This document shows positions 1-30,704 of a stretch of 32,000 bases of DNA, one piece after another (within the stretch, counting starts at the first letter, position 1; each line of letters opens with the position of its first letter). A program made the position numbers and the translations under genes. This stretch comes from Clostridia bacterium (GTDB taxonomy: Bacteria; Bacillota; Clostridia; TANB77; RGIG9151), in NCBI GenBank assembly GCA_017934955.1, contig JAGBIO010000008.1:1-32000 (forward strand), read 5' to 3'. Under the pieces are notes generated by a model. That model was given only the letters and a program-made list of their open reading frames with translations. It searched no databases and had not been told where the DNA came from.

Positions 1-49
1 AGTCGCCCGTTGTAGAACGTCTGTCGGGCGATTAATAATCGCCCCTACA
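1..49. repeat. Partial inverted palindrome doublet, variant-stem member of the REP-like family
   Basis: The window opens inside the element. AGTCGCCC (1-8) is followed by a 17-nt spacer, then GGGCGATT-AAT-AATCGCCC (26-44) and CTACA (45-49). The architecture and CCCTACA tail match the main family, but the self-complementary stem is different. Confidence 0.6.
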
Positions 50-64
50 TCTTTGTTATCGTAC

Positions 65-232
65 GAGAAAAATCTAATTTGTACGGACAGCATTTATGCT
101 GTCCTAATTCTGCCTTTTCTGTGGACACAATAAATTGTGTCCCTACATATTTGGAGAAAAATGTAAGCTAATTTGTACGGACAGCATTTATGCTGTCCTA
201 ATTCTACTGGCTGCCTTTTTTGTGGACAGCAT
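65..232 (+). repeat. Tandem duplication (~89-bp units) of a REP-like palindrome doublet; the last copy is truncated
   Basis: The units span 65-153 and 154-232. Each unit starts GAGAAAAAT..TAATT, then TGTACGG and the hairpin GGACAGCAT-TT-ATGCTGTCC (85-104 and 179-198). A spacer TAATTCT..CCTTTT..TGT follows. Unit 1 then has GGACACAAT-AA-ATTGTGTCC-CTACA (123-147). Unit 2 ends after only the first arm, GGACAGCAT (224-232). Confidence 0.9.
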
Positions 233-335
233 TCGTAGTCGAAACTTCCCAATCACTTCGTTCTTGGAGTTTCTTTGCACAGGACGTACAAGCTGTTCAC
301 CTGCGGTTCACAGTGTTACGTCCGCATTGCCGCAG

Positions 336-2700: not shown

Positions 2701-2878
2701 GTTACAAGTCATAATATATATCGGGACGTCGAAGACGCCGTCCTCTACAATGACGGCATAATCCTTGTAGGGACACAATTCATTGTGTCCTAAACCTACC
2801 TTCTGCCAATTTCTCGGACACCATAAATGGTGTCCCTACAAGGATTAAGGCATTATTTACGTACATTTGCATTGTAAT
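2701..2878 (-). mobile_element. MITE copy in inverted orientation that carries a nested GC-rich repeat; right boundary uncertain
   Basis: The TIR-like end GTTACAAGTCAT starts at 2701. The GC-rich repeat lies in reverse orientation at 2722-2749 (CGGGACGTCGAAGACGCCGTCCTCTACA). The palindrome doublet spans 2766-2840: TGTAGGG-GGACACAAT-TC-ATTGTGTCC, a 25-nt spacer, then GGACACCAT-AA-ATGGTGTCC-CTACA. Its inverted flanks extend as AATCCT / AGGATT. The far end is only weakly TIR-like (TGCATTGTAAT ending at 2878), and I found no TSD. Confidence 0.65.
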
Positions 2879-4006: not shown

Positions 4007-4129
4007 TTTACAGAAGACTTCTATGATGATGCTACAAACGTTGTAGGGACAGCATTTATGCTGTCCACAGAAAAGGCAGAATTTAATAGTCCGATTCTTA
4101 ACTTAAGGACATTGAGTCTGATCTGTAAC
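4007..4129 (+). mobile_element. Decayed MITE copy
   Basis: The left end is TTTACAGAAG (first base G to T) at 4007. An intact left palindrome TGTAGGG-GGACAGCAT-TT-ATGCTGTCC spans 4042-4066. The family spacer ACAGAAAAGGCAGAATT spans 4067-4083. The second hairpin has eroded (AATAGTCCG). The right TIR TCTGATCTGTAAC ends at 4129. There is no clear TSD. Confidence 0.6.
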
Positions 4130-6649: not shown

Positions 6650-6803
6650 GTTACAAGTAATACTATATCTCCTATAATACCGGTACACCCATTGTACGGA
6701 CAGCATTCATGCTGTCCTGCCTTTTTGATTTTTCCATGGACAGCATAAATGCTGTCCCTACACTATTTGTGCCATTTTTATAATTTTAAGTCTGAACTAT
6801 AAC
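6650..6803 (+). mobile_element. 154-bp MITE with a palindrome-doublet core
   Basis: The left TIR is GTTACAAGTAATAC (6650-). The right TIR is the reverse complement of ..TCTGAACTATAAC (ending 6803), which reads GTTATAGTTCAGA. The core doublet spans 6693-6762: TGTACGG-GGACAGCAT-TC-ATGCTGTCC, a 20-nt spacer, then GGACAGCAT-AA-ATGCTGTCC-CTACA. Its length equals that of the 17293-17446 copy. The flanks gACGAtGg and aACGAgGt look like a decayed TSD. Confidence 0.85.
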
Positions 6804-6810
6804 AACGAGG

Positions 6811-7209
6811 TTATATTTGATTTTTAACATACGCTTCGATTCTATTCACAAATTTAACGGCATTATCACATTGTTCTATCGCTTCTTGCCTTGAAATACG
6901 ATAAAAATCAGAATAATCACTTTGAATTTTCACAGAAAAAGCCTCCTTCGCCATTTTCGCATATTCCAATCCAATCAATCCCGTTTTAATATAATCCGAA
7001 TTAAAATTTACAAAAGCACAAGAGTGTTTCTTAAAACCAATCCCTCTTAACGCCAAAAGTACATTCATCGAATGAAATATGGCATAATACGCACAATTAA
7101 CACTATCTGTATAAACTTCACCATCCAACAACAGCTTTGCTGCATTAAGAGAATCTCTTGCTTTTTCAAGCTTATACTTTCCACACGTAATTTCCTCTTG
7201 ATTAGGCAC
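6811..7209 (-). CDS. HEPN-domain protein (putative toxin of an MNT/HEPN type VII TA pair)
   Basis: The helical HEPN-like sequence has an Rx6H motif (LRGIGFKKHS) and SDYSDFY. I place the start at GTG 7209, with AGGGAG 9 nt upstream. This gives an 8-nt overlap (GTGCCTAA) with the MNT gene stop. The ORF-track start at 7272 would overlap the MNT gene by 71 nt; ATG 7251 is another option. Confidence 0.8.
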   Translation of the reverse strand: MPNQEEITCGKYKLEKARDSLNAAKLLLDGEVYTDSVNCAYYAIFHSMNVLLALRGIGFKKHSCAFVNFNSDYIKTGLIGLEYAKMAKEAFSVKIQSDYSDFYRISRQEAIEQCDNAVKFVNRIEAYVKNQI

Positions 7210-7543
7210 ACAAATCCACTCCCTCTGCTTCAATATTCTTAAATAACGCATAAGTAGCCTTATATCTTTCATAAGTAGCCTTATCCTGAATCAAAAGAGA
7301 TAAAACAACACCATATTTCAAATCAATCTCTACTGAAAAATCCGAAAACTTCTTTATTTGTTTCTTAACTTCATCACTCGTTATATCCGCAATAATCATA
7401 ACATCTATATCAGATTCTTTATCATAGTCACCTCGTGCATAAGAACCATATAAAATAACCGAATTCAGTAAATCCCCCAATTCACTCTTAGCATATCTTA
7501 AAACATCTTCCAATATCATTCGTAACGTATCTTCCTTACACAT
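7202..7543 (-). CDS. Minimal nucleotidyltransferase (MNT) domain protein (putative antitoxin)
   Basis: 113 aa with the polymerase-beta-type signature GSYARGDYDKESDIDVMII. SD GGAGG lies 7 nt upstream of the ATG. It sits immediately upstream of, and overlaps, the HEPN gene. Confidence 0.9.
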   Translation of the reverse strand: MCKEDTLRMILEDVLRYAKSELGDLLNSVILYGSYARGDYDKESDIDVMIIADITSDEVKKQIKKFSDFSVEIDLKYGVVLSLLIQDKATYERYKATYALFKNIEAEGVDLCA

Positions 7544-10020: not shown

Positions 10021-11679
10021 TTATTCCTCCTGAAAACAGCTACCTCCGATAAACTCACGAATAATCGAATTTTCCGGCACACGCTCCGACTCAATCGGCT
10101 CAAAATACTGTAAAAAGTCCAATAGCTTCTTTGCCTGCGGATAATACTCCGACTTCTTCGTAATCTCTCTTAATAACGGCTCTGCCACTACCTTCAAAAT
10201 ACCGATTTCATAAAACATCGCCGAATTAAACATCGCATCCGCATCCTCCTGATAAGGGAAAATATTCTTCTCCTCACCACGGCGCACCGCATCCCAAAGT
10301 TCTAACGTTCTCTCCGGTGAATGTCCTCTATACTTATAGTCCCGCACCATTCTTCTTAACAATCTCGTATCCGACGTACCAATCGAATTGTGATCATCAA
10401 TATTAATCGAAGTTAAAGCACTGATATAAATCTTAAACTTATTCTCACGCGGAATACTCTCCGTAAGCTTCTCATTTAACGCATGAATTCCTTCAAAAAT
10501 CAAAACCTGATTTTCCTCTAACTTTAACTTCTTACCGGTTAACTTTCTGGTACCGGTCATAAAATCAAATAACGGAAGTTCCACTTCCTCTCCGTTTAAT
10601 AACTTCGTCAAATGTTCATTAAACAACTCCAAATCCACCGCATACAAACTCTCAAAATCCGGCTTTCCGGTTTCATCAAGCGGCGTCCGATCCCGATTTA
10701 CAAAATAATCGTCTAACGCAATCGGAATCGCATTAATGCCATTTACCATCAACTGAATCGCAAGTCTGTGGGAAGACGTTGTCTTTCCTGACGAAGAAGG
10801 ACCCGCAATCAACACAATCTTCTTCTTCGGATCCGACTTAATCTTATCCGCAATCTCCGCATACTTTTTCTCTTGCAAAGCCTCCGCAATTCGCATATAC
10901 TGCCCCATTTTATTGTTTCGAACAATTTCATTTAGCATCGAAACGTTCTCAACCCCTAAAATACGATTCCACGTCTTAAACTCACGAAAAATCTCAAACA
11001 ACTTCTTTTGATCATAATACGGCGGTAAATGATAAAAATCTCCCTTTTTCGGATAGCGCAAAATAAATCCGCCCTCATATAGCCGCAACTCAAACATCGT
11101 AAGATACCCGCTATTCGGAACCAAATAACCGTAAAAATAATCGTTCCAATCTCCGCAGGAATAAATCGTCACCATGTCCATATCCAAAGAATCCAACACT
11201 CCGATTTTATCCGGTTGCTGTAAACTCATATAAATCTTCTTAGCCTCTTCCTTCGTCACCTTACTCTTAATAAACGGAATCTTCTCCGCCACCAACTCCC
11301 GCATTCTATCTTCAATTTGCTTACGAAACGTCTCATTCACCGGACAATCTGCATTTCGAAGTTCGCAAAAAACGCCTTGATTAATAGAATGTTCTACCAC
11401 GACATTCGCACTCGGACAAAATTCCTCACAAACCTTAATAAACAAGAACAATAAGCTCCTCCTGTAAATGCTGACTCCCTCGGAAGAATCATAATCCACA
11501 AAACGAATTTCCGCATCCTCATCCATTTTATGCCGCAAACTTCTCGACTCATTATTCACAATCGCCCCTAAAATCGGAGACGCATTTTGAATCCCAAAAG
11601 AATTAATAAAATCAATAATTCTCGTATTTTTCTCTACTTCAAACTCTCTACCCTGCACTTTTATCTTTACTGTATCCAT
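10021..11679 (-). CDS. Uridine kinase/phosphoribulokinase-family nucleoside kinase with a long N-terminal TGS/ThrRS-like extension
   Basis: 552 aa. The P-loop IAGPSSSGKTT and the downstream DDYF lie in the C-terminal half. The N-terminus (VKIKVQGREFEVEKNTRIIDF) resembles a TGS-type beta-grasp. It lies 19 nt downstream of the ligase gene. Confidence 0.8.
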   Translation of the reverse strand: MDTVKIKVQGREFEVEKNTRIIDFINSFGIQNASPILGAIVNNESRSLRHKMDEDAEIRFVDYDSSEGVSIYRRSLLFLFIKVCEEFCPSANVVVEHSINQGVFCELRNADCPVNETFRKQIEDRMRELVAEKIPFIKSKVTKEEAKKIYMSLQQPDKIGVLDSLDMDMVTIYSCGDWNDYFYGYLVPNSGYLTMFELRLYEGGFILRYPKKGDFYHLPPYYDQKKLFEIFREFKTWNRILGVENVSMLNEIVRNNKMGQYMRIAEALQEKKYAEIADKIKSDPKKKIVLIAGPSSSGKTTSSHRLAIQLMVNGINAIPIALDDYFVNRDRTPLDETGKPDFESLYAVDLELFNEHLTKLLNGEEVELPLFDFMTGTRKLTGKKLKLEENQVLIFEGIHALNEKLTESIPRENKFKIYISALTSINIDDHNSIGTSDTRLLRRMVRDYKYRGHSPERTLELWDAVRRGEEKNIFPYQEDADAMFNSAMFYEIGILKVVAEPLLREITKKSEYYPQAKKLLDFLQYFEPIESERVPENSIIREFIGGSCFQEE

Positions 11680-11698: not shown

Positions 11699-13411
11699 TT
11701 AATACCTTTTTATTTTATGCGTCGTCGTCTTCGCAAACTCCGTCTCTTGTATTTCAAACTGTTTTACAGCCTTATAAGTCGGCATCTTTCTATTCGCCTT
11801 CTTCACTTGCTCCGCAATCATCTTACGGATCTCATCTGCACTTAAATTAAACGTTCCGGTAGAATTTCGAATCTCATCGTAATCCGGCACAATCTTCGCA
11901 TATACTTGCGGTTCAAGCTCTCCCTCAACTTCTTTTCCGTACACCATACTCTCCTTAATAATCGGACTATCATTTAAATAAGATTCCACTTCTTCCGGGA
12001 AGATATTCTTCCCATTCTTCGTCACAATGACATTTTTCTTTCTTCCGGTAATATAGTAAAAACCATCTTTATCCACATAACCCAAATCACCGGTTTTAAG
12101 CCATCCATCTGAAGTCAGCGTCTTCTTTGTCGCTTCCTCGTTCTCATAATATCCCTGCATCACAATATTGCCCTTAACCCAAATTTCTCCGATACCCGAA
12201 GCATCCGGATCATGAACCTGTGCCTCCACTCCCGGTAACGCCAAGCCAATCGACGCATTCTTATAATAATCTACCTGATTGACAAATGCAATCGGAGATG
12301 CCTCCGTCAGCCCGTAACCTTGAATTACGAAAAAACCCATATCCTGAAGCCCCTTCAAAACTTCCGGCTTACTCGCTGCACCTCCCGCAATCGCCAAACG
12401 AATATTTCCACCGAAAGTATCTAAAATATCCGCAAAAAACTTCTTACGCATATCCACATTCACTTTTCGTAGCATATTGCTGATTTTTAACCCCTTCTGC
12501 AATTTCTCCGCTCTTCCCGTCTTTTTCGCCTGTTCCCAAATCTTCTTATACATATTCTCATAGATAAGCGGTACCGCAATCATGACCGTTGGCTTTACTT
12601 CCTTTAAGTTTTGCACGATATGTTTTAATCCTTCACAGAAGGAAATCGTCGCACCGTTGTATAGCATTAATAAGAACGACACAGTACATTCGTATGTATG
12701 ATGCAACGGTAAAATCGAAAGGATTGTATCCTCCTCCGTAACATTTACAACCTGCGACGTATATACAATATCCGAACAAATATTTCTTTGGCTCAACATA
12801 ACCCCTTTGGCCAACCCTGTCGTTCCCGACGTAAACAATAAAATCGTCGGCTCTTCCGGATCTACCTTAGCATTAATAAACTTCTTATCTCCGATTTTAA
12901 TCAAGTTATTTCCTTTTTTTAAAATCTTATTAAAGGAAAGACAACCTGCTTCATCCTCTGCCAAATCCATATTAATAAAATACTTTAACTCATGAAGTCC
13001 CGCAACCGCTTCCGCTACTTTATCCTTATATTTGGCAGAAAAGACAATCGCACGAACTTTCGAAACCTCTAACAAATATCTTAATTCATTCGCGGGAAGC
13101 TCCTTATCCAAAGGAACAATTGTCCCTGTTCCCGCCGTCGTCGCCAAATACGTCAAACACCACTCATAACGATTTTCTCCTAAAACCGCAATCTTCTCAT
13201 GCTTTAGTCCCATATTAATAAATTCCGTTCCCAAAGCCTCCACATCTTTCTTCAAATCCTTGTAACGAATCCCTGTATACTCCCCCATGATTCCTTTTAA
13301 CAAAAATGCATTCTTATTTCCATAAATCCCCGCACTTTGATTTAATAAATCCTTAAAATCCGTAATATCTCTTTTATTGTAAATCGGCTGAGTCAAAGGA
13401 AATCCCTCCAT
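11699..13411 (-). CDS. Long-chain-fatty-acid--CoA ligase (AMP-forming, FAA1/FadD-like)
   Basis: 570 aa. It has the AMP-binding signature LLFTSGTTGLAKGVMLS, plus GYGLTE and TGDLGYVDKDGFYYITGRKKNVI. There is no SD before ATG 13411. Confidence 0.9.
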   Translation of the reverse strand: MEGFPLTQPIYNKRDITDFKDLLNQSAGIYGNKNAFLLKGIMGEYTGIRYKDLKKDVEALGTEFINMGLKHEKIAVLGENRYEWCLTYLATTAGTGTIVPLDKELPANELRYLLEVSKVRAIVFSAKYKDKVAEAVAGLHELKYFINMDLAEDEAGCLSFNKILKKGNNLIKIGDKKFINAKVDPEEPTILLFTSGTTGLAKGVMLSQRNICSDIVYTSQVVNVTEEDTILSILPLHHTYECTVSFLLMLYNGATISFCEGLKHIVQNLKEVKPTVMIAVPLIYENMYKKIWEQAKKTGRAEKLQKGLKISNMLRKVNVDMRKKFFADILDTFGGNIRLAIAGGAASKPEVLKGLQDMGFFVIQGYGLTEASPIAFVNQVDYYKNASIGLALPGVEAQVHDPDASGIGEIWVKGNIVMQGYYENEEATKKTLTSDGWLKTGDLGYVDKDGFYYITGRKKNVIVTKNGKNIFPEEVESYLNDSPIIKESMVYGKEVEGELEPQVYAKIVPDYDEIRNSTGTFNLSADEIRKMIAEQVKKANRKMPTYKAVKQFEIQETEFAKTTTHKIKRY

Positions 13412-14456: not shown

Positions 14457-14636
14457 GGACACAATAAATTGTGTCCCTACGTTAATTGTGCCTCTTCCTT
14501 CCGTACGGACAGCATTCATGCTGTCCACACGTTAATTGTGCCTCTATCCTTCTGTACGGACAGCATTCATGCTGTCCACACGTTAATTGTGCTTCTATCC
14601 TTCTGTACGGACAGCATTTATGCTGTCCACTCTACA
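14457..14636 (+). repeat. Tandem array of 3.5 units (50-51-bp period) of palindrome plus constant spacer
   Basis: The hairpins are GGACACAAT-AA-ATTGTGTCC (14457-14476) and GGACAGCAT-TC-ATGCTGTCC (14507-14526 and 14558-14577). A fourth, GGACAGCAT-TT-ATGCTGTCC, lies at 14609-14628. The spacers are near-identical (ACACGTTAATTGTGCCTCTATCCTTCTGTAC). Confidence 0.95.
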
Positions 14637-16343: not shown

Positions 16344-17270
16344 ATGGAAGTTATTCTTATTATTTTATTAATCGCAGCCGTAATTATCGCTTTTAGCAGT
16401 ATCGTTACGGTGCACCAAAGTGAAGTTTGTATTATAGAAAGATTCGGAAAATACCACAAGTTAGCACATGCAGGACTGAACTTTATATGTCCGTTCGTTG
16501 ACAAAATTCATCACAGAGTTGATTTACGTCAACAAACAATGGATGTACCGCCACAAGGCGTTATTACAAAAGATAACGTTACAATTACAATCGACACCGT
16601 TGTATTCTATCAAATTATGGATCCCTATAAAGCGGTTTATGAAATTAACAATTTAAGAGCCGGTATTTCTTACTTAGCTATCACTACCATTCGTGATATT
16701 ATCGGTAAAATGGAACTCGACAGCACCTTTAGTTCCAGAGATGTTATTAATACCCAACTTCGTGATATCTTAGACGAAGCAACCGATAAATGGGGCTGTA
16801 AAGTCGATCGTGTGGAAGTAAAAGATATTCGTCCGCCGGCAGATATCCGTGATGCCATGGAAAAGCAAATGAACGCAGAAAGAAATAAAAGAGCTGTTAT
16901 CTTAGAAGCCGAAGGTGAAAGACAAAGTGCCATCACTCGTGCGGAAGGTGAAAAAGAGGCTGCAATTTTAAGAGCAGAAGCTCAAAAACAATCGAATATT
17001 CGTCTTGCTGAAGGTGTAAAAGAAGCAAAAATCTTAGAAGCAACCGGTGAAGCCGATGCGATCCGTCAAATTGCCGAAGCAAAAGCAAAAGAAGTAGAAT
17101 TGGTTTATGACGCTATTATGAATGCAAAACCAAACGATAAATTAATTGCGATTAAGTCACTCGAAGCGCTGGAAAAAGTCGCTGACGGTCAAGCAAATAA
17201 AGTATTTATCCCATTCGACGCAACCCAAACCCTCGCTTCTGTTTCTGCCATGTTCGAAGCAAAAAATTAA
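16344..17270 (+). CDS. SPFH/band-7 (stomatin-like) protein
   Basis: 308 aa with an N-terminal TM helix, an SPFH core (VPPQGVITKDNV...VEVKDIRPP) and a C-terminal Ala/Glu-rich coiled coil. SD AAAGGAGGAG. Confidence 0.93.
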   Translation: MEVILIILLIAAVIIAFSSIVTVHQSEVCIIERFGKYHKLAHAGLNFICPFVDKIHHRVDLRQQTMDVPPQGVITKDNVTITIDTVVFYQIMDPYKAVYEINNLRAGISYLAITTIRDIIGKMELDSTFSSRDVINTQLRDILDEATDKWGCKVDRVEVKDIRPPADIRDAMEKQMNAERNKRAVILEAEGERQSAITRAEGEKEAAILRAEAQKQSNIRLAEGVKEAKILEATGEADAIRQIAEAKAKEVELVYDAIMNAKPNDKLIAIKSLEALEKVADGQANKVFIPFDATQTLASVSAMFEAKN

Positions 17271-17292: not shown

Positions 17293-17446
17293 GTTACAGC
17301 TCAAACTATATCGTCCTACAACGATGGTGCAACCATTGTAGGGACAGCATTTATGCTGTCCTGCTTTCTGCTTTTTCTGTGGACAGCATGAATGCTGTCC
17401 CTACAGCGTTTGTGCCTTCTCTATAAATTTGGTTCTGACTTGTAAC
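17293..17446 (+). mobile_element. 154-bp MITE with TIRs and a perfect 8-bp TSD
   Basis: The left TIR is GTTACAGCTCAAAC (17293-). The right TIR reads GTTACAAGTCAGAAC as the reverse complement of the end at 17446. The core doublet at 17337-17405 is TGTAGGG-GGACAGCAT-TT-ATGCTGTCC, a 19-nt spacer, then GGACAGCAT-GA-ATGCTGTCC-CTACA. Direct repeats CCTTTTTC lie at 17285-17292 and 17447-17454. Confidence 0.93.
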
Positions 17447-18349: not shown

Positions 18350-19765
18350 CTAATTTTTTGTTGTCTTCAGCATTGCATTTCCATGCGTATTCTCTGTTTT
18401 ATATTCAATATACCAAATCGGATAATTTCCTCCCAAAACGTCAATATCATACGACATTTGAATACAATTCACAACCATAGTCTGTTTTTCCGGAATTTTA
18501 GGAATCAATTCATTCAAAATACCACTTGTCAAATTGGTTACAAAAGAAGAAAGGTTTTCTAAATCATACCGAATCAATTTCCCCTTAAAATACCGAATGC
18601 TGCCATTCTTCACTTTAAGCTGTGCAATCGCTCGAAAATCATCTTCAATTATTTTCTTAGAAGAAATCAAAGGAATTCCGTCTGCCGCAAGGAAAAAACG
18701 GAAATCATACTCATCTTCCGATTTTTTTACCGATAACAAGTAAATATCTTCATAGGCATGAAACATATCAATAAAATCCAACGCCATATTGTAAGCTATC
18801 GCAGGAGAAACATTCTCTGTATTCTCCAACTTTCCCTTATTAATATACTCCACCAAACCATCTGTATCAATTTGAACATAACTTTTATCATCGTTGATAT
18901 AAATAGTTCCATTATCGCCGGTAATAAACTTCGCATAATCGGTATTTTGAAAAATTTGCACTGCTAAATGATCCGCCGAATAAGCATCGTTCTGCTTAAA
19001 ATATTCTTTAATACTCAATTTTTTTACATAATCTCTCAAATTCACCTTATTTGAAATCGGAAATAAAACATCGGTATTCGGCTCAATAATTCGCTCCGAA
19101 TAAAACTTTGTTGTCCCGGTTTCCTCTAACGTCACATATTTTGCATCCGCAACTTTATCGATATAACCGTCAATAAAATTCTCAATATCCGCCATTTCTT
19201 CTTTCAACAAAATCTTATATAATAAATCCTTATCTTCAATCTTGCAATCCACATAAATAACAGCACCATCAATCGACTTCGTAACCGCAAGTTTATTGAT
19301 ATTATTAAAATCCGGTTGATTAATTCGAATTAAATTCGGTAAGACCAATTTCAAAATCTCAACATCAACCGTATTTCCAAACTCCAATATAATCGATTTT
19401 CGGTGAATCAAATCTTTCCACTCCGAAATATTTCCTGTAATCACTTCAGTCTTTTCACCAATATGATCAAATTTCACTTTCACTAAATTCCATGCTTCCA
19501 TCACATCCGGCGAATCACAATACAACATCCATTTTCCGTTATCCGGACTCGCTATCGTCAACTTATAAGGAACAATTGACTCCGCATATTTTTGAGAATA
19601 CTCCACTTCCTCCGTTATAAAAGTTCCCCTAAGATTTTTCGGAAAATTTGCCAAAACCAAAGAAAGCCCTTGGTAATTATCAAACCATAGGCTTCCCGTC
19701 AAATATATACTTAATCCGATTAAAAAACATAAAAACAAAGATTTAATATTTTCCCAAATACGCAT
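18350..19765 (-). CDS. YycH-like extracytoplasmic regulatory protein
   Basis: 471 aa. The N-terminus MRIWENIKSLFLCFLIGLSIYLTGSLW fits the YycH family opening (IKS...L..LS..LT..LW). It has a single N-terminal TM helix and a large extracellular part. Confidence 0.65.
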   Translation of the reverse strand: MRIWENIKSLFLCFLIGLSIYLTGSLWFDNYQGLSLVLANFPKNLRGTFITEEVEYSQKYAESIVPYKLTIASPDNGKWMLYCDSPDVMEAWNLVKVKFDHIGEKTEVITGNISEWKDLIHRKSIILEFGNTVDVEILKLVLPNLIRINQPDFNNINKLAVTKSIDGAVIYVDCKIEDKDLLYKILLKEEMADIENFIDGYIDKVADAKYVTLEETGTTKFYSERIIEPNTDVLFPISNKVNLRDYVKKLSIKEYFKQNDAYSADHLAVQIFQNTDYAKFITGDNGTIYINDDKSYVQIDTDGLVEYINKGKLENTENVSPAIAYNMALDFIDMFHAYEDIYLLSVKKSEDEYDFRFFLAADGIPLISSKKIIEDDFRAIAQLKVKNGSIRYFKGKLIRYDLENLSSFVTNLTSGILNELIPKIPEKQTMVVNCIQMSYDIDVLGGNYPIWYIEYKTENTHGNAMLKTTKN

Positions 19766-20313: not shown

Positions 20314-20901
20314 TCAATTAAAATACCGAAAAAAATCATCAAAAGTCTTAAAATCACCAATTGTATCATTTAACGATTGCATAAACAAACTTAAAAATAC
20401 CCCAACTGCAATCGCACCAATTAAAATTACCAGTGCCACCATAATCCACTTTTTCGAAGAAACCAATTCTTCAAAAGAAATAAACTTACTCTTTTTCTTC
20501 TCCTCAAAATATCCCTCTTCATTATACGGTGTATAATTCGCCCGCGCATAACCATTTCTGTCGTAATAAGTTCCCGTACGATTTTGATGATACTTCACGT
20601 TTCTCATCATATCATTATACGTCTTATAAGGATTCGATTCCGTCTCACTTCGGCTTTCCTTCCGGTGATGTTCCACCGATTCTTCCGCTTTAATCCCCTC
20701 CGCCACGTCATAAGACTTTCTTAACTCCACATTCGAAAGCACGTCATAAGCACGATTAATCTCCTGCATCCTCTCTTCCGCAAAAGACTTGTCCCCTTTA
20801 TAAGTATCCGGATGATACTTCTTCGCAAGCGCTCGATACGCCTTTTTTATCTCACTCTGTGACGCCGTCGGTTTTACACTTAACACCTCATAATGATTCA
20901 A
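20314..20901 (-). CDS. J-domain (DnaJ-like) membrane protein
   Basis: J-domain [35 protein letters not shown] with the HPD tripeptide, and a C-terminal TM helix [22 protein letters not shown]. The start is TTG 20901, 7 nt after GAAGGAG. The ORF-track ORF (ending at 21087) reads through the tRNA and its terminator. Confidence 0.85.
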
Positions 20902-20926
20902 AAGAATCACTCCTTCATGCAATAAC

Positions 20927-20957
20927 GAAAAAGCACTTGCGTTCGCAAGTGCTTTTT
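20927..20957 (-). terminator. Intrinsic terminator after tRNA-Leu
   Basis: Minus strand: AGCACTTGCG-AA-CGCAAGTGCT followed by TTTT. It begins 7 nt after the tRNA CCA end. Confidence 0.8.
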
Positions 20958-20963
20958 CTCCTT

Positions 20964-21048
20964 TGGTGCCGCTGGCCGGAGTCGAACCGGCACTCCTCTC
21001 GGAACTTGATTTTGAGTCAAGCACGTCTGCCAATTCCATCACAGCGGC
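20964..21048 (-). tRNA. tRNA-Leu(CAA), type II, with encoded CCA
   Basis: 85 nt: GCCGCTGTGATGGAATTGGCAGACGTGCTTGACTCAAAATCAAGTTCCGAGAGGAGTGCCGGTTCGACTCCGGCCAGCGGCACCA. The acceptor stem is GCCGCTG/CAGCGGC. The anticodon stem is CTTGA/TCAAG with loop CT-CAA-AA. It has a long variable arm and the T-arm GCCGG-TTCGACT-CCGGC. Confidence 0.95.
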
Positions 21049-21058
21049 AAGTGAATTT

Positions 21059-21087
21059 AGTATACCGAAAAAATAAAAAAAAATCAA
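21059..21087 (-). promoter_or_regulatory. Promoter of tRNA-Leu
   Basis: Minus strand: TTGATT (21087-21082), a 17-nt spacer, TATACT (21064-21059). The tRNA 5' end lies 10 nt downstream. Confidence 0.7.
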
Positions 21088-24209: not shown

Positions 24210-24253
24210 CTGCCTTAACCTCTTTTCCTTAGTAAAAAAATTTTCTTTTTATT

Positions 24254-24354
24254 GCGTCCATACACCTACTATCATCTCTTTCCGTACGGACACAATTCAT
24301 TGTGTCCGTACACCTACCATCATCTCCTTCCGTACAGACATATTCATTATATCC
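24254..24354 (+). repeat. Tandem palindrome array (~48-bp period) that reaches the rsmA stop codon
   Basis: A partial unit ..GTCCATACACCTACTATCATCTCTTTCC comes first. It is followed by the perfect 28-bp palindrome GTAC-GGACACAAT-TC-ATTGTGTCC-GTAC (24284-24311). The spacer ACCTACCATCATCTCCTTCC and a decayed hairpin AGACATATTCATTATATCC (24336-24354) complete the array. Confidence 0.85.
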
Positions 24355-25242: not shown

Positions 25243-25267
25243 TGTACGGACAGCATTCATGCTGTCC
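25243..25267 (+). repeat. Solo REP-like palindrome
   Basis: TGTACGG-GGACAGCAT-TC-ATGCTGTCC, lying 41 nt upstream of the rsmA start codon. Confidence 0.9.
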
Positions 25268-25297: not shown

Positions 25298-25505
25298 GTT
25301 ACAGGTCAAACTATAATCTTGTATCTTTCAAAAAATATCGTCAGAATGTAGCTTGTAGGGACACAATTCATTGTGTCCTAATCTAATGTCAGGCTATTTC
25401 GCGGACACAATAAATTGTGTCCCTACAACGTTTGTACCGTCATCGTAGGGGACGGCGTCCCTGACATCCCGATATATTTACAACAATTTTACTCTGAACT
25501 GTAAC
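25298..25505 (+). mobile_element. 208-bp MITE (doublet core plus nested GC-rich repeat) with a perfect 8-bp TSD
   Basis: The left TIR is GTTACAGGTCAAACTATAAT (25298-). The right TIR reads GTTACAGTTCAGAGTAAAAT as the reverse complement of the end at 25505. The doublet spans 25354-25427 and the REP-B copy GTAGGGGACGGCGTCCCTGACATCCCG spans 25445-25471. Direct repeats AAAGTAAT lie at 25290-25297 and 25506-25513. Confidence 0.93.
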
Positions 25506-26227: not shown

Positions 26228-26338
26228 GGACAGCATAAATGCTGTTCCTACAAATATCCTCTTTCTCCGTACGGACAGCATTCATGCTGTCCTTTACAAA
26301 TATCCTCTCACACCGTATGGACGGCATTCATGCTGTCC
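26228..26338 (+). repeat. Tandem array of three palindromes (45-46-bp period)
   Basis: The first hairpin is GGACAGCAT-AA-ATGCTGTTCC (26228-26248, with a 1-nt insertion, followed by TACA). The second is GTAC-GGACAGCAT-TC-ATGCTGTCC (26273-26292). The third is GTAT-GGACGGCAT-TC-ATGCTGTCC (26319-26338). The spacers are similar: TTTACAAATATCCTCT..CC. Confidence 0.93.
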
Positions 26339-27704: not shown

Positions 27705-27729
27705 TGTACGGACACAATTCATCGTGCCC
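27705..27729 (+). repeat. Decayed solo REP-like palindrome
   Basis: TGTACGG-GGACACAAT-TC-ATCGTGCCC, with two mismatches in the second arm. It lies 7 nt from the cdd stop codon. Confidence 0.7.
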
Positions 27730-28915: not shown

Positions 28916-28940
28916 GGACAGCATAAATGCTGTCCCTACA
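28916..28940 (-). repeat. Solo REP-like palindrome between accA and fabZ
   Basis: GGACAGCAT-AA-ATGCTGTCC-CTACA, in the orientation opposite to the TGTAGGG-first copies. It lies 12 nt from the accA stop. Confidence 0.9.
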
Positions 28941-30676: not shown

Positions 30677-30704
30677 TGTAGGGGACGGCGTCCTCGACGT
30701 CCCG
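30677..30704 (+). repeat. GC-rich repeat (REP-B), consensus copy
   Basis: TGTAGGGGACGGCGTCCTCGACGTCCCG. It has internal complementarity (GGGACG...CGTCCC and GGACG-G-CGTCC). It abuts the accC stop codon (30705-30707) with no gap. Confidence 0.9.

Follow-up and report, generated by a model that had tools for sequence, protein, structure and literature searches.

The 32,000-nucleotide stretch of contig JAGBIO010000008.1 analysed here (the window) comes from a ruminant-gut metagenome-assembled genome (MAG) of the Clostridia and encodes SpoIIIAA, SLH-domain proteins and copper amine oxidase-like domains. It has a G+C content of 39.3% and a strongly negative GC skew on the plus strand (-0.14 to -0.40), and its intergenic regions are occupied by short palindromes that are probably GTAG-tagged repetitive extragenic palindromes (REPs). 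Our analysis centres on a head-to-head pair of such palindromes between the Band7 and AbrB-like genes (17338..17404), which resembles a REP doublet forming a hairpin (REPIN). It reads GTAG-GGACAGCATTTATGCTGTCC, a 19-nt T-rich spacer and GGACAGCATGAATGCTGTCC-CTAC, with T-GTAG at 17337-17341, the two hairpins at 17342-17361 and 17381-17400 and CTAC-A at 17401-17405. Folded as single-stranded DNA (ssDNA), a single unit is predicted to form an 8-bp stem with a 4-nt loop, with GTAG remaining single-stranded (-8.5 kcal/mol, z about -4 to -5). The whole doublet is predicted to fold into one 25-bp hairpin as ssDNA (-26.7 kcal/mol, z = -9.4) and reaches -47.6 kcal/mol as RNA (z = -10.6).

The window contains 24 exact matches to GGAC-N12-GTCC, compared with 0.13 expected from shuffled sequences, in which the maximum was 2. 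Twenty of the 24 are perfect 20-bp palindromes (9+2+9), starting at 85, 123, 179, 2771, 2816, 4047, 6698, 6738, 14457, 14507, 14558, 14609, 17342, 17381, 24288, 25248, 25359, 25403, 26273 and 28916. The copy at 26319 carries one mismatch, the matches at 2724 and 30683 belong to another palindrome type (family C, see below), and the match at 16473 is a non-palindromic chance hit within a coding sequence. Together with degenerate copies of the main type, family A, at 26232 (GAAC) and 27710 and a GGGC-type unit at 26-48, this yields about 26 units of three related types. An earlier note on this DNA had reported at least 26 perfect copies in 11 intergenic regions; the number of units stands, while only 20 are perfect and the regions number 12. 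The 12 kb of flanking sequence on the same contig adds about 13 units, giving a local density of about 0.8-1 units per kb over 44 kb (window plus flanks). At about 0.8 units per kb, this is several times the REP density of E. coli or Pseudomonas.

We oriented the copies by their flanking tetranucleotide. Family A comprises 23 units of the form (T)GTA[G/C/T]-GGAC-NNN-AT-TY-AT-NNN-GTCC, tagged by GTAG in 12 cases, GTAC in 10 and GTAT in one. Its loop is asymmetric, reading TT or TC when GTAG, GTAC or GTAT lies on the 5' side in all 22 informative units; unit 24284-24311 has GTAC at both ends and is therefore uninformative on polarity. Family B (GTAG-GGGCGAYT-ATT-ARTCGCCC) has an 8-bp stem and a 3-nt loop and occurs as head-to-head doublets, at 1-48 of the window and at 11022-11080 and 19055-19113 of flank L142. 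The copy at 1..48 is the right half of such a doublet (GTAG-GGGCGACTATTAGTCGCCC ... GGGCGATTAATAATCGCCC-CTAC), since the window begins within the left unit, and is predicted to fold at -9.7 kcal/mol as ssDNA. Family C (GTAG-GGGACG-N10-CGTCCC), which contains GACGTC, has four copies in about 44 kb, at 2724-2749 and 30679-30702 of the window and at 12590 and 14154 of L142. Every family B and family C unit seen carries GTAG.

Five head-to-head doublets of family A, with their tags outside and spacers of 18-25 nt, are present, and the remaining copies are singles or lie in tail-to-tail and head-to-tail arrays with periods of 44-51 bp. The tag-loop polarity and the five inverted doublets that the earlier note had described are real, and the stem variants and their positions are as it gave them. 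Its spacer consensus, in contrast, fits exactly at 105-122 only, whereas the remaining doublets have pyrimidine-rich spacers of partial similarity. As the spacers are only partly conserved, whole doublets vary more than the REPINs of Pseudomonas do.

The arms of the palindromes change together, as had been proposed. We assembled 32 distinct tagged units from the window and other organisms, chosen by their fixed outer bases only, in which 98.6% of the stem cells were paired and five of the nine pairs showed changes on both sides; none of 500 shuffles reached the observed covariation score. Sliding the partner by 1-3 columns lowered pairing to 26-45%. Some copies have a T.G pair in the strand that bears the tag, where the opposite strand would have the mismatch C.A; this indicates folding of one particular strand.

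We then considered the placement of the units relative to genes. That no copy lies inside a confident coding sequence proved correct once three over-extended gene starts were corrected: 26 of 26 units are intergenic, all of them within 4.6 kb of intergenic DNA (14.5% of the window; P about 1.5e-22), and the 27.4 kb of coding DNA holds none. The enrichment in intergenic over genic DNA, here assessed within the window, thus holds. Of the twelve intergenic regions occupied, ten separate co-directional genes, and one region each is divergent and convergent. The three open reading frame (ORF) calls that overlap units, for ksgA, a methyltransferase and spoIIIAA, begin, like the public gene calls, at an ATG or GTG supplied by a repeat (25256, 26327 and 14528, respectively); the ATG arises in the REP loop, which reads CATGAATG. 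The true starts lie at about 25205 (ksgA), 26193 (methyltransferase) and 14424 (spoIIIAA), each with a ribosome-binding site. For ksgA, the start downstream of the call follows from an alignment with the KsgA protein of a relative, and for the other two genes it is a downstream codon beside a good ribosome-binding site. At least three genes of the window have therefore been annotated with inflated N-termini, because their starts were called within REP hairpins. REP clusters also break metagenome assemblies and may mislead binning.

Related genomes allowed us to compare orthologous regions. In one relative (L138-L140), the AbrB-like protein is 100% and TrpS 94.7% identical to those of the window and gene order is kept, yet its 7.7 kb contain no copy, whereas the corresponding part of the window has six. 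The Band7-AbrB spacer measures 109 bp there and lacks a REP, compared with 263 bp in the window, and L138 retains the trpS terminator without the four-unit array that follows it in the window. In the more distant L141, whose DUF4914 protein is 88.5% identical to that of the window, the ksgA-DUF4914 spacer is 20 bp as opposed to 144 bp. No tagged copy occurs in 128.6 kb from L141 and L146-L152, all of which carry DUF4914 proteins of one 90%-identity cluster. REPs are thus found neither at orthologous intergenic regions nor anywhere in 136 kb of relatives, so the family was gained, or expanded recently, in this lineage. Such repeat-free sister lineages offer a natural before/after comparison for invasion and for effects on operon expression. 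The same relatives (L138-L141, L146-L152) also differ in base composition, with 31-34% G+C compared with 38-40% and a skew to -0.40 here. The REPs cannot account for this gap because, at about 50% G+C, they fill only about 13% of the intergenic DNA.

Outside this lineage, we located exact GTAG-footed copies of the 20-mer GGACAGCATTYATGCTGTCC in Chloroflexota, namely in several Anaerolineae and on a Phototrophicaceae contig of 4.95 Mb. Further copies lie in the Clostridiales MAG RUG103 (63% G+C), where the partner is GGACGCCATTCATGGCGTCC, and on short contigs binned as Spirochaetales, Bacteroidales and Patescibacteria, a binning that we would not trust. We did not adopt a recent transfer between phyla as an explanation of the shared 20-mer: with the conserved base and loop fixed, only three stem pairs are free, so identity across phyla is easily reached by convergence and need not mean transfer. 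No plasmid or phage sequence in the collections searched by BLAST matched the doublet. At 5051-5070 of L017, a Bacillota MAG locus, an untagged copy of GGACAGCATAAATGCTGTCC is followed by GCTTTTTT. This copy is most likely an ordinary intrinsic terminator with a chance 20-mer match, and it cautions against taking every 20-mer match as a REP.

REP/REPIN systems and their REP-associated tyrosine transposases (RAYTs) have been studied almost only in Gammaproteobacteria. The hallmarks of REPs, bacterial interspersed mosaic elements and REPINs to which the earlier note had appealed, namely a GTAG foot (carried here by 12 of the 23 family A units), a compensatory stem-loop, extragenic placement, head-to-head doublets and coexisting subfamilies, were all found in the window. 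The available text of Di Nocera 2013 (PMC3733652) describes 24 GTAG families with the same traits: stems of 6-13 bp that have GTAG left unpaired at one end, loops that are very short and in many cases fit the consensus TY, complementary stem changes and G.T pairs, and an arrangement as singles, clusters and head-to-head, tail-to-tail or head-to-tail dimers, of which the head-to-head form is commonest. Our comparison of GTAG-GGRC...GYCC with these families is one of text descriptions and not of consensus sequences. As hosts, the same available text names Proteobacteria, Cyanobacteria, Chloroflexi and the Planctomycetes-Verrucomicrobia-Chlamydiae (PVC) group, and not Firmicutes. Inverted doublets that form a long hairpin, a high extragenic copy number, lineage-specific subfamilies and a proposed mechanism in which RAYT acts in trans on ssDNA are likewise shared with the REPIN-RAYT systems of Pseudomonas and E. 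coli (Bertels and Rainey 2011; Ton-Hoang et al. 2012). Unlike in those systems, the stems here are shorter, perfect and without bulges, the local density is much higher, the host is a Clostridia bacterium with 39% G+C, and the likely RAYT is of subclass 2.4 / group 4 instead of groups 2 and 3 / subclasses 2.2 and 2.5.

The repeats inside and beside the 80 genes of the subclass 2.4 TnpA-REP type described below resemble those of the window in design, with GTAG, a stem that is based on GGRC/GYCC and varies in its middle, and a short loop; some copies have a foot at both ends, as described for this subclass (PMC6006769). In subclass 2.4, REPs lie in frame within the transposase gene (Quentin et al. 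2018, PMC6006769), whereas the window has no such gene. Group 4 / subclass 2.4 RAYTs have been reported from Cyanobacteria, Bacteroidetes, Chlorobia, Caldilineae and "various phyla". The 16-mers flanking group 4 RAYT genes are only modestly repeated, with about 14 per replicon (Bertels 2017), whereas the present genome appears saturated with repeats. IS200/IS605 elements such as IS608 and ISDra2 also use subterminal hairpins on one strand, an HUH/Y1 enzyme and a tetranucleotide 5' of the foot as a guide. They differ in carrying their own tnpA (and tnpB) between two unlike hairpins, while the elements here are non-coding and 24-70 bp long. Known Firmicute repeats, i.e., BOX, RUP and SPRITE of Streptococcus, bcr1 of the Bacillus cereus group and EFAR of enterococci, are intergenic, structured, multi-copy and lineage-specific as well. 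These, however, are modular or resemble miniature inverted-repeat transposable elements, measure 70-300 bp with terminal inverted repeats or target duplications, and are not 20-bp GTAG-tagged palindromes tied to Y1 transposases.

The earlier note could name no described counterpart in a low-GC Firmicute and, in agreement with this, the searchable REP/RAYT literature contained no GTAG REP family in Firmicutes; figures and some supplements lay outside this search, and an earlier listing is possible. A literature match for the motif GTAGGGAC returned only noise, and Clostridia appear in the REP/RAYT literature only for IS200-type or group 1 transposases, not for REP families. The window thus presents a new host lineage for a kind of element that is itself already known, and a saturated population in uncultured gut Clostridia would, if true, extend its host range.

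To relate the repeats to a transposase, we searched for two RAYT classes with probe sequences and took as evidence only the real proteins recovered. The proteins of one class start with HHRRSIRLKGYDY and share the motifs MPNH[FIV]H, WQRNYYEH and YIxNNP, the same three motifs that Quentin et al. 2018 (PMC6006769) give for subclass 2.4; judged from these motifs, the class is subclass 2.4 of Quentin and group 4 of Bertels. In nearly all of 80 metagenomic RAYT loci (L044-L123), fished with alignment A1, GTAG-GGGC...GCCC repeats lie beside and inside the RAYT gene. Arms of the GGAC...GTCC type occur inside the gene in L099 and L105, and a 20-bp design with an ATTCAT centre like that of the window, GTAGGGGCGCAATTCATTGCGCCC, in L085 and L107. 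The peptides VGADLRVCP and GRTHRFAPT / G(A/R)(H/T)H..APT, which are seemingly conserved in RAYTs, are a translated in-frame REP doublet. In a Clostridia-like RAYT subgroup (A4), the REP arms are split, one following the first beta-strand (LFG..VGAAPCGRP) and one the HUH motif. GGGC and GGAC types share a contig in L128 and L134.

One locus from an Oscillospiraceae MAG (L135) encodes an intact 179-aa RAYT with an internal REP and has eight GGGC/GGAC REPs, including a head-to-head doublet, in the surrounding 18 kb. At the HUH and the Y motif alike, this RAYT matches E. coli TnpA-REP 4ER8, and it scores against NCBIfam REP_Tyr_transpos with E = 7.6e-16, below the strict cut-off of that model. A RAYT of the same subgroup on IMG/VR contig 3300029305_005738 (L155/L157) contains two in-frame internal repeats GTAGGGGCGATCATTGATCGCCC, which are of the family B type of the window; scans of viral contigs with both repeat types gave 29 loci and a RAYT on this contig only.

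From these observations, we consider it likely that the repeats are GTAG-tagged REPs, many of them in REPIN-like inverted doublets, and that they are non-autonomous ssDNA mobile elements moved by a RAYT. The mechanism would follow the biochemistry of E. coli TnpA-REP and IS608 (PMC3333891, PMC3479197, PMC6006769). A RAYT of subclass 2.4, an HUH/Y1 nuclease encoded elsewhere in the genome, would bind the folded hairpin on ssDNA, the most likely sources of which are the replication fork and transcription, read the GTAG foot as a guide, and cleave and rejoin the strand via its catalytic tyrosine. Units and doublets could thereby be excised, copied or moved into new intergenic sites, and local arrays might grow through re-cleavage and joining inside clusters. 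Units within operons would be transcribed as stable RNA hairpins and may, as a side effect, change mRNA decay or read-through. Such effects are plausibly by-products and not the reason for the repeats' existence, because most copies lack a T-run, one array lies past a separate terminator and the relatives manage without the repeats.

Several observations weigh against this interpretation. No RAYT/Y1 gene was found in the window and its 12 kb of flanks (about 44 kb of this genome), including the HUH/Y1 gene bracketed by inverted copies for which the earlier note had suggested looking, nor in about 540 kb of other fetched loci, L135 excepted; E. coli RayT in phmmer and HUH/Y motif patterns likewise returned nothing in the window and the first 26 loci. 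Since no RAYT was found in the 44 kb, we infer the mobilising enzyme from other genomes. The proposed RAYT link is thus borne out insofar as the same repeat type flanks or interrupts RAYT genes elsewhere, and not by a gene in this part of the genome. None of 507 RAYT family proteins inspected has an internal repeat of exactly the GGAC/ATTYAT type. A probe with peptides encoded by GGAC REPs (VGTAFMLS, GQHECCPY and others) recovered only fragments of <100 aa, none with those peptides, and among the 150 relatives that phmmer recovered for the Oscillospiraceae RAYT fragment P0331, no protein has a GGAC/ATTYAT-encoded insert. Moreover, GTAC or GTAT replaces GT[AG]G in nearly half of the units, and GTAC falls outside the tag degeneracies given in the available text of Di Nocera 2013 (PMC3733652). 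Finally, the comparison with relatives shows extra DNA around the REPs and no clean insertion footprint; the presence/absence pattern amounts to lineage-specific gain, and no transposition event was directly observed.

The repeats could alternatively be orphan or fossil REPs, spread by a RAYT that has since been lost or is rarely active and now persisting as immobile intergenic hairpins. The missing RAYT fits this idea, as do the REP-bearing strains without REPtrons mentioned in the available text of Di Nocera 2013 (PMC3733652) and the degenerate or truncated copies at 26228, 27706, about 224-240 and about 24312-24330. However, the absence of a RAYT concerns only about 44 kb of the genome, and 20 of about 23 family A copies are perfect palindromes. 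The arrays at 14503-14628 and 26269-26338 have near-identical linkers and not the unique spacers of a CRISPR array. Perfect palindromes and near-identical linkers together argue for recent or continuing copying, and we regard a purely fossil population as unlikely.

A second alternative is that the host itself evolved the palindromes as terminators or attenuators, as mRNA-stabilising hairpins or as sites for nucleoid or regulatory proteins. Copies between co-directional genes would be transcribed, the RNA hairpins are stable (-14 to -20 kcal/mol), and E. coli REPs are known to have secondary effects of this kind (PMC6006769). Most copies, however, lack a T-run after the stem on the transcribed strand, and a simple scan for intrinsic terminators flagged only one of the 26 units (6698), which looks terminator-like on the non-transcribed strand. 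The trpS gene has its own bona fide terminator upstream of the array at 14457..14628, and the relative keeps this terminator without any REP. Copies are also found ahead of start codons and in the promoter region of a divergent gene pair, they form tandem arrays, relatives with 88-95% identical proteins do without them, and elsewhere RAYT genes are associated with repeats of this tagged design. A host-made signal is thus very improbable. Equally improbable is mobilisation by another enzyme, either a group 1 / TIRYT RayT or an IS200/IS605 TnpA, with the repeats being end-derived palindrome-associated transposable elements: group 1 RayT is abundant in Clostridia, is present in the same ruminant project (P0078 in SRR12529390) and has genes that are also flanked by hairpin-forming repeats, but in 12 loci those flanks carry another hairpin, GGAGACAAGGGGACGGTTCTCTTGTCTCC, with neither GTAG foot nor GGAC-N12-GTCC, and the design in the window matches the repeats of subclass 2.4 RAYTs instead, which led us to reject group 1 as the partner.

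Within the RAYT-moved REP population that we favour, two features stand out: the palindromic GTAC variant of the tag and the complete strand bias of the GTAC/GTAT units. In 18 of 18 such units, the tag lies on the C-rich strand, opposite to most genes. Eleven of these units are from the window, four from the flanks and three from the independent contig L016, those outside the window being at 205, 2029 and 2075 of L001, 17331 of L142 and 1250, 5431 and 5482 of L016. They form head-to-tail arrays with a period of 44-51 bp, capped by one hairpin-CTAC unit, and the head-to-head doublets likewise hold their pyrimidine-rich spacer on the C-rich strand. IS200/IS605 elements are biased towards the lagging-strand template (PMC3333891), and a bias of this kind could explain the strand lock. 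As nearly all genes here point one way, replication and transcription are indistinguishable as its cause. The strand lock would be the footprint of strand-specific insertion, and we propose, tentatively, a wider reading of which this is one part. Here, the window would represent the first REPIN-RAYT-type system in Bacillota, at about 0.8 units per kb, driven by a subclass 2.4 / group 4 RAYT, with a palindromic-GTAC subfamily whose 18-of-18 strand lock reflects replication- or transcription-coupled insertion. If true, it would concern a RAYT class to which only small repeat populations have been attributed so far, and would connect subclass 2.4 RAYTs, which have been little studied and whose genes carry in-frame REPs, with an abundant REP population.

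The remaining units are distributed along the window as follows. Near its left end, a head-to-head doublet at 81..146 consists of a GTAC-hairpin with a CAGCAT stem, the spacer TAATTCTGCCTTTTCTGT and a hairpin with a CACAAT stem followed by CTAC, and the plus-strand feature at 175..240 joins a GTAC unit (175-198) and a spacer to the truncated partner GGACAGCATTCGTAGTC (about 224-240). The divergent region between the GHL10 and transglutaminase-like genes holds a head-to-head doublet with CACAAT and CACCAT stems (2767..2839), and a degenerate minus-strand copy of family C at 2724..2749 reads GGACGTCGAAGACGCCGTCC and then TCTACA. A single plus-strand GTAG unit in the convergent region (4043..4066) is followed by the reversed doublet spacer ACAGAAAAGGCAGAATTT without a partner hairpin. 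The doublet at 6694..6761 (GTAC ... CTAC) lies between the HEPN and purA genes. Directly beside it, overlapping genes for a HEPN protein (153 aa) and a nucleotidyltransferase (113 aa) occupy 6811-7543, and, by sequence, this pair looks like a HEPN-MNT toxin-antitoxin module.

Further to the right, the four-unit array at 14457..14628, located between the terminator of trpS and the true start of spoIIIAA, is composed of a hairpin-CTAC unit (14457-14480) followed by head-to-tail GTAC units at 14503, 14554 and 14605 with a 51-bp period. A shorter array with a period of about 44 bp (24240..24330) contains the intact unit 24284-24311 and the truncated copy GTATGGACGCAAT (about 24312-24330). Just upstream of the true ksgA start lies a single GTAC unit on the plus strand (25244..25267), and a head-to-head doublet with CACAAT stems follows at 25355..25426. 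The array at 26228..26338 begins 1 nt past the stop codon of the OAD-gamma gene, on the upstream side of the true start of the methyltransferase. It combines a degenerate hairpin-CTAC unit with GAAC (26228-26251), a GTAC unit (26269-26292) and a GTAT unit with one G.T pair (26315-26338). The last three features are a degenerate plus-strand GTAC unit with two stem mismatches (27706..27729), a single minus-strand GTAG unit between fabZ and accA (28916..28939) and a plus-strand family C unit, GTAGG-GGACGGCGTCCTCGACGTCC (30679..30702), of which the two L142 copies are identical.

Two minor observations concern other genes. The group 1 RayT P0078 was found as an identical 248-aa protein in at least eight gut-metagenome neighbourhoods (L036-L043), bracketed by GGAGACAAGGGGACGGTTCTCTTGTCTCC hairpins with stuttered partial copies upstream; its occurrence in so many neighbourhoods points to insertion-sequence-like behaviour. 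In the window itself, an Rfam search found only one tRNA. The ORF call for a DnaJ-domain protein (20314-21087) runs with its 5' end across a minus-strand tRNA-Leu(CAA) gene at 20964-21048; the protein probably starts downstream of this tRNA.

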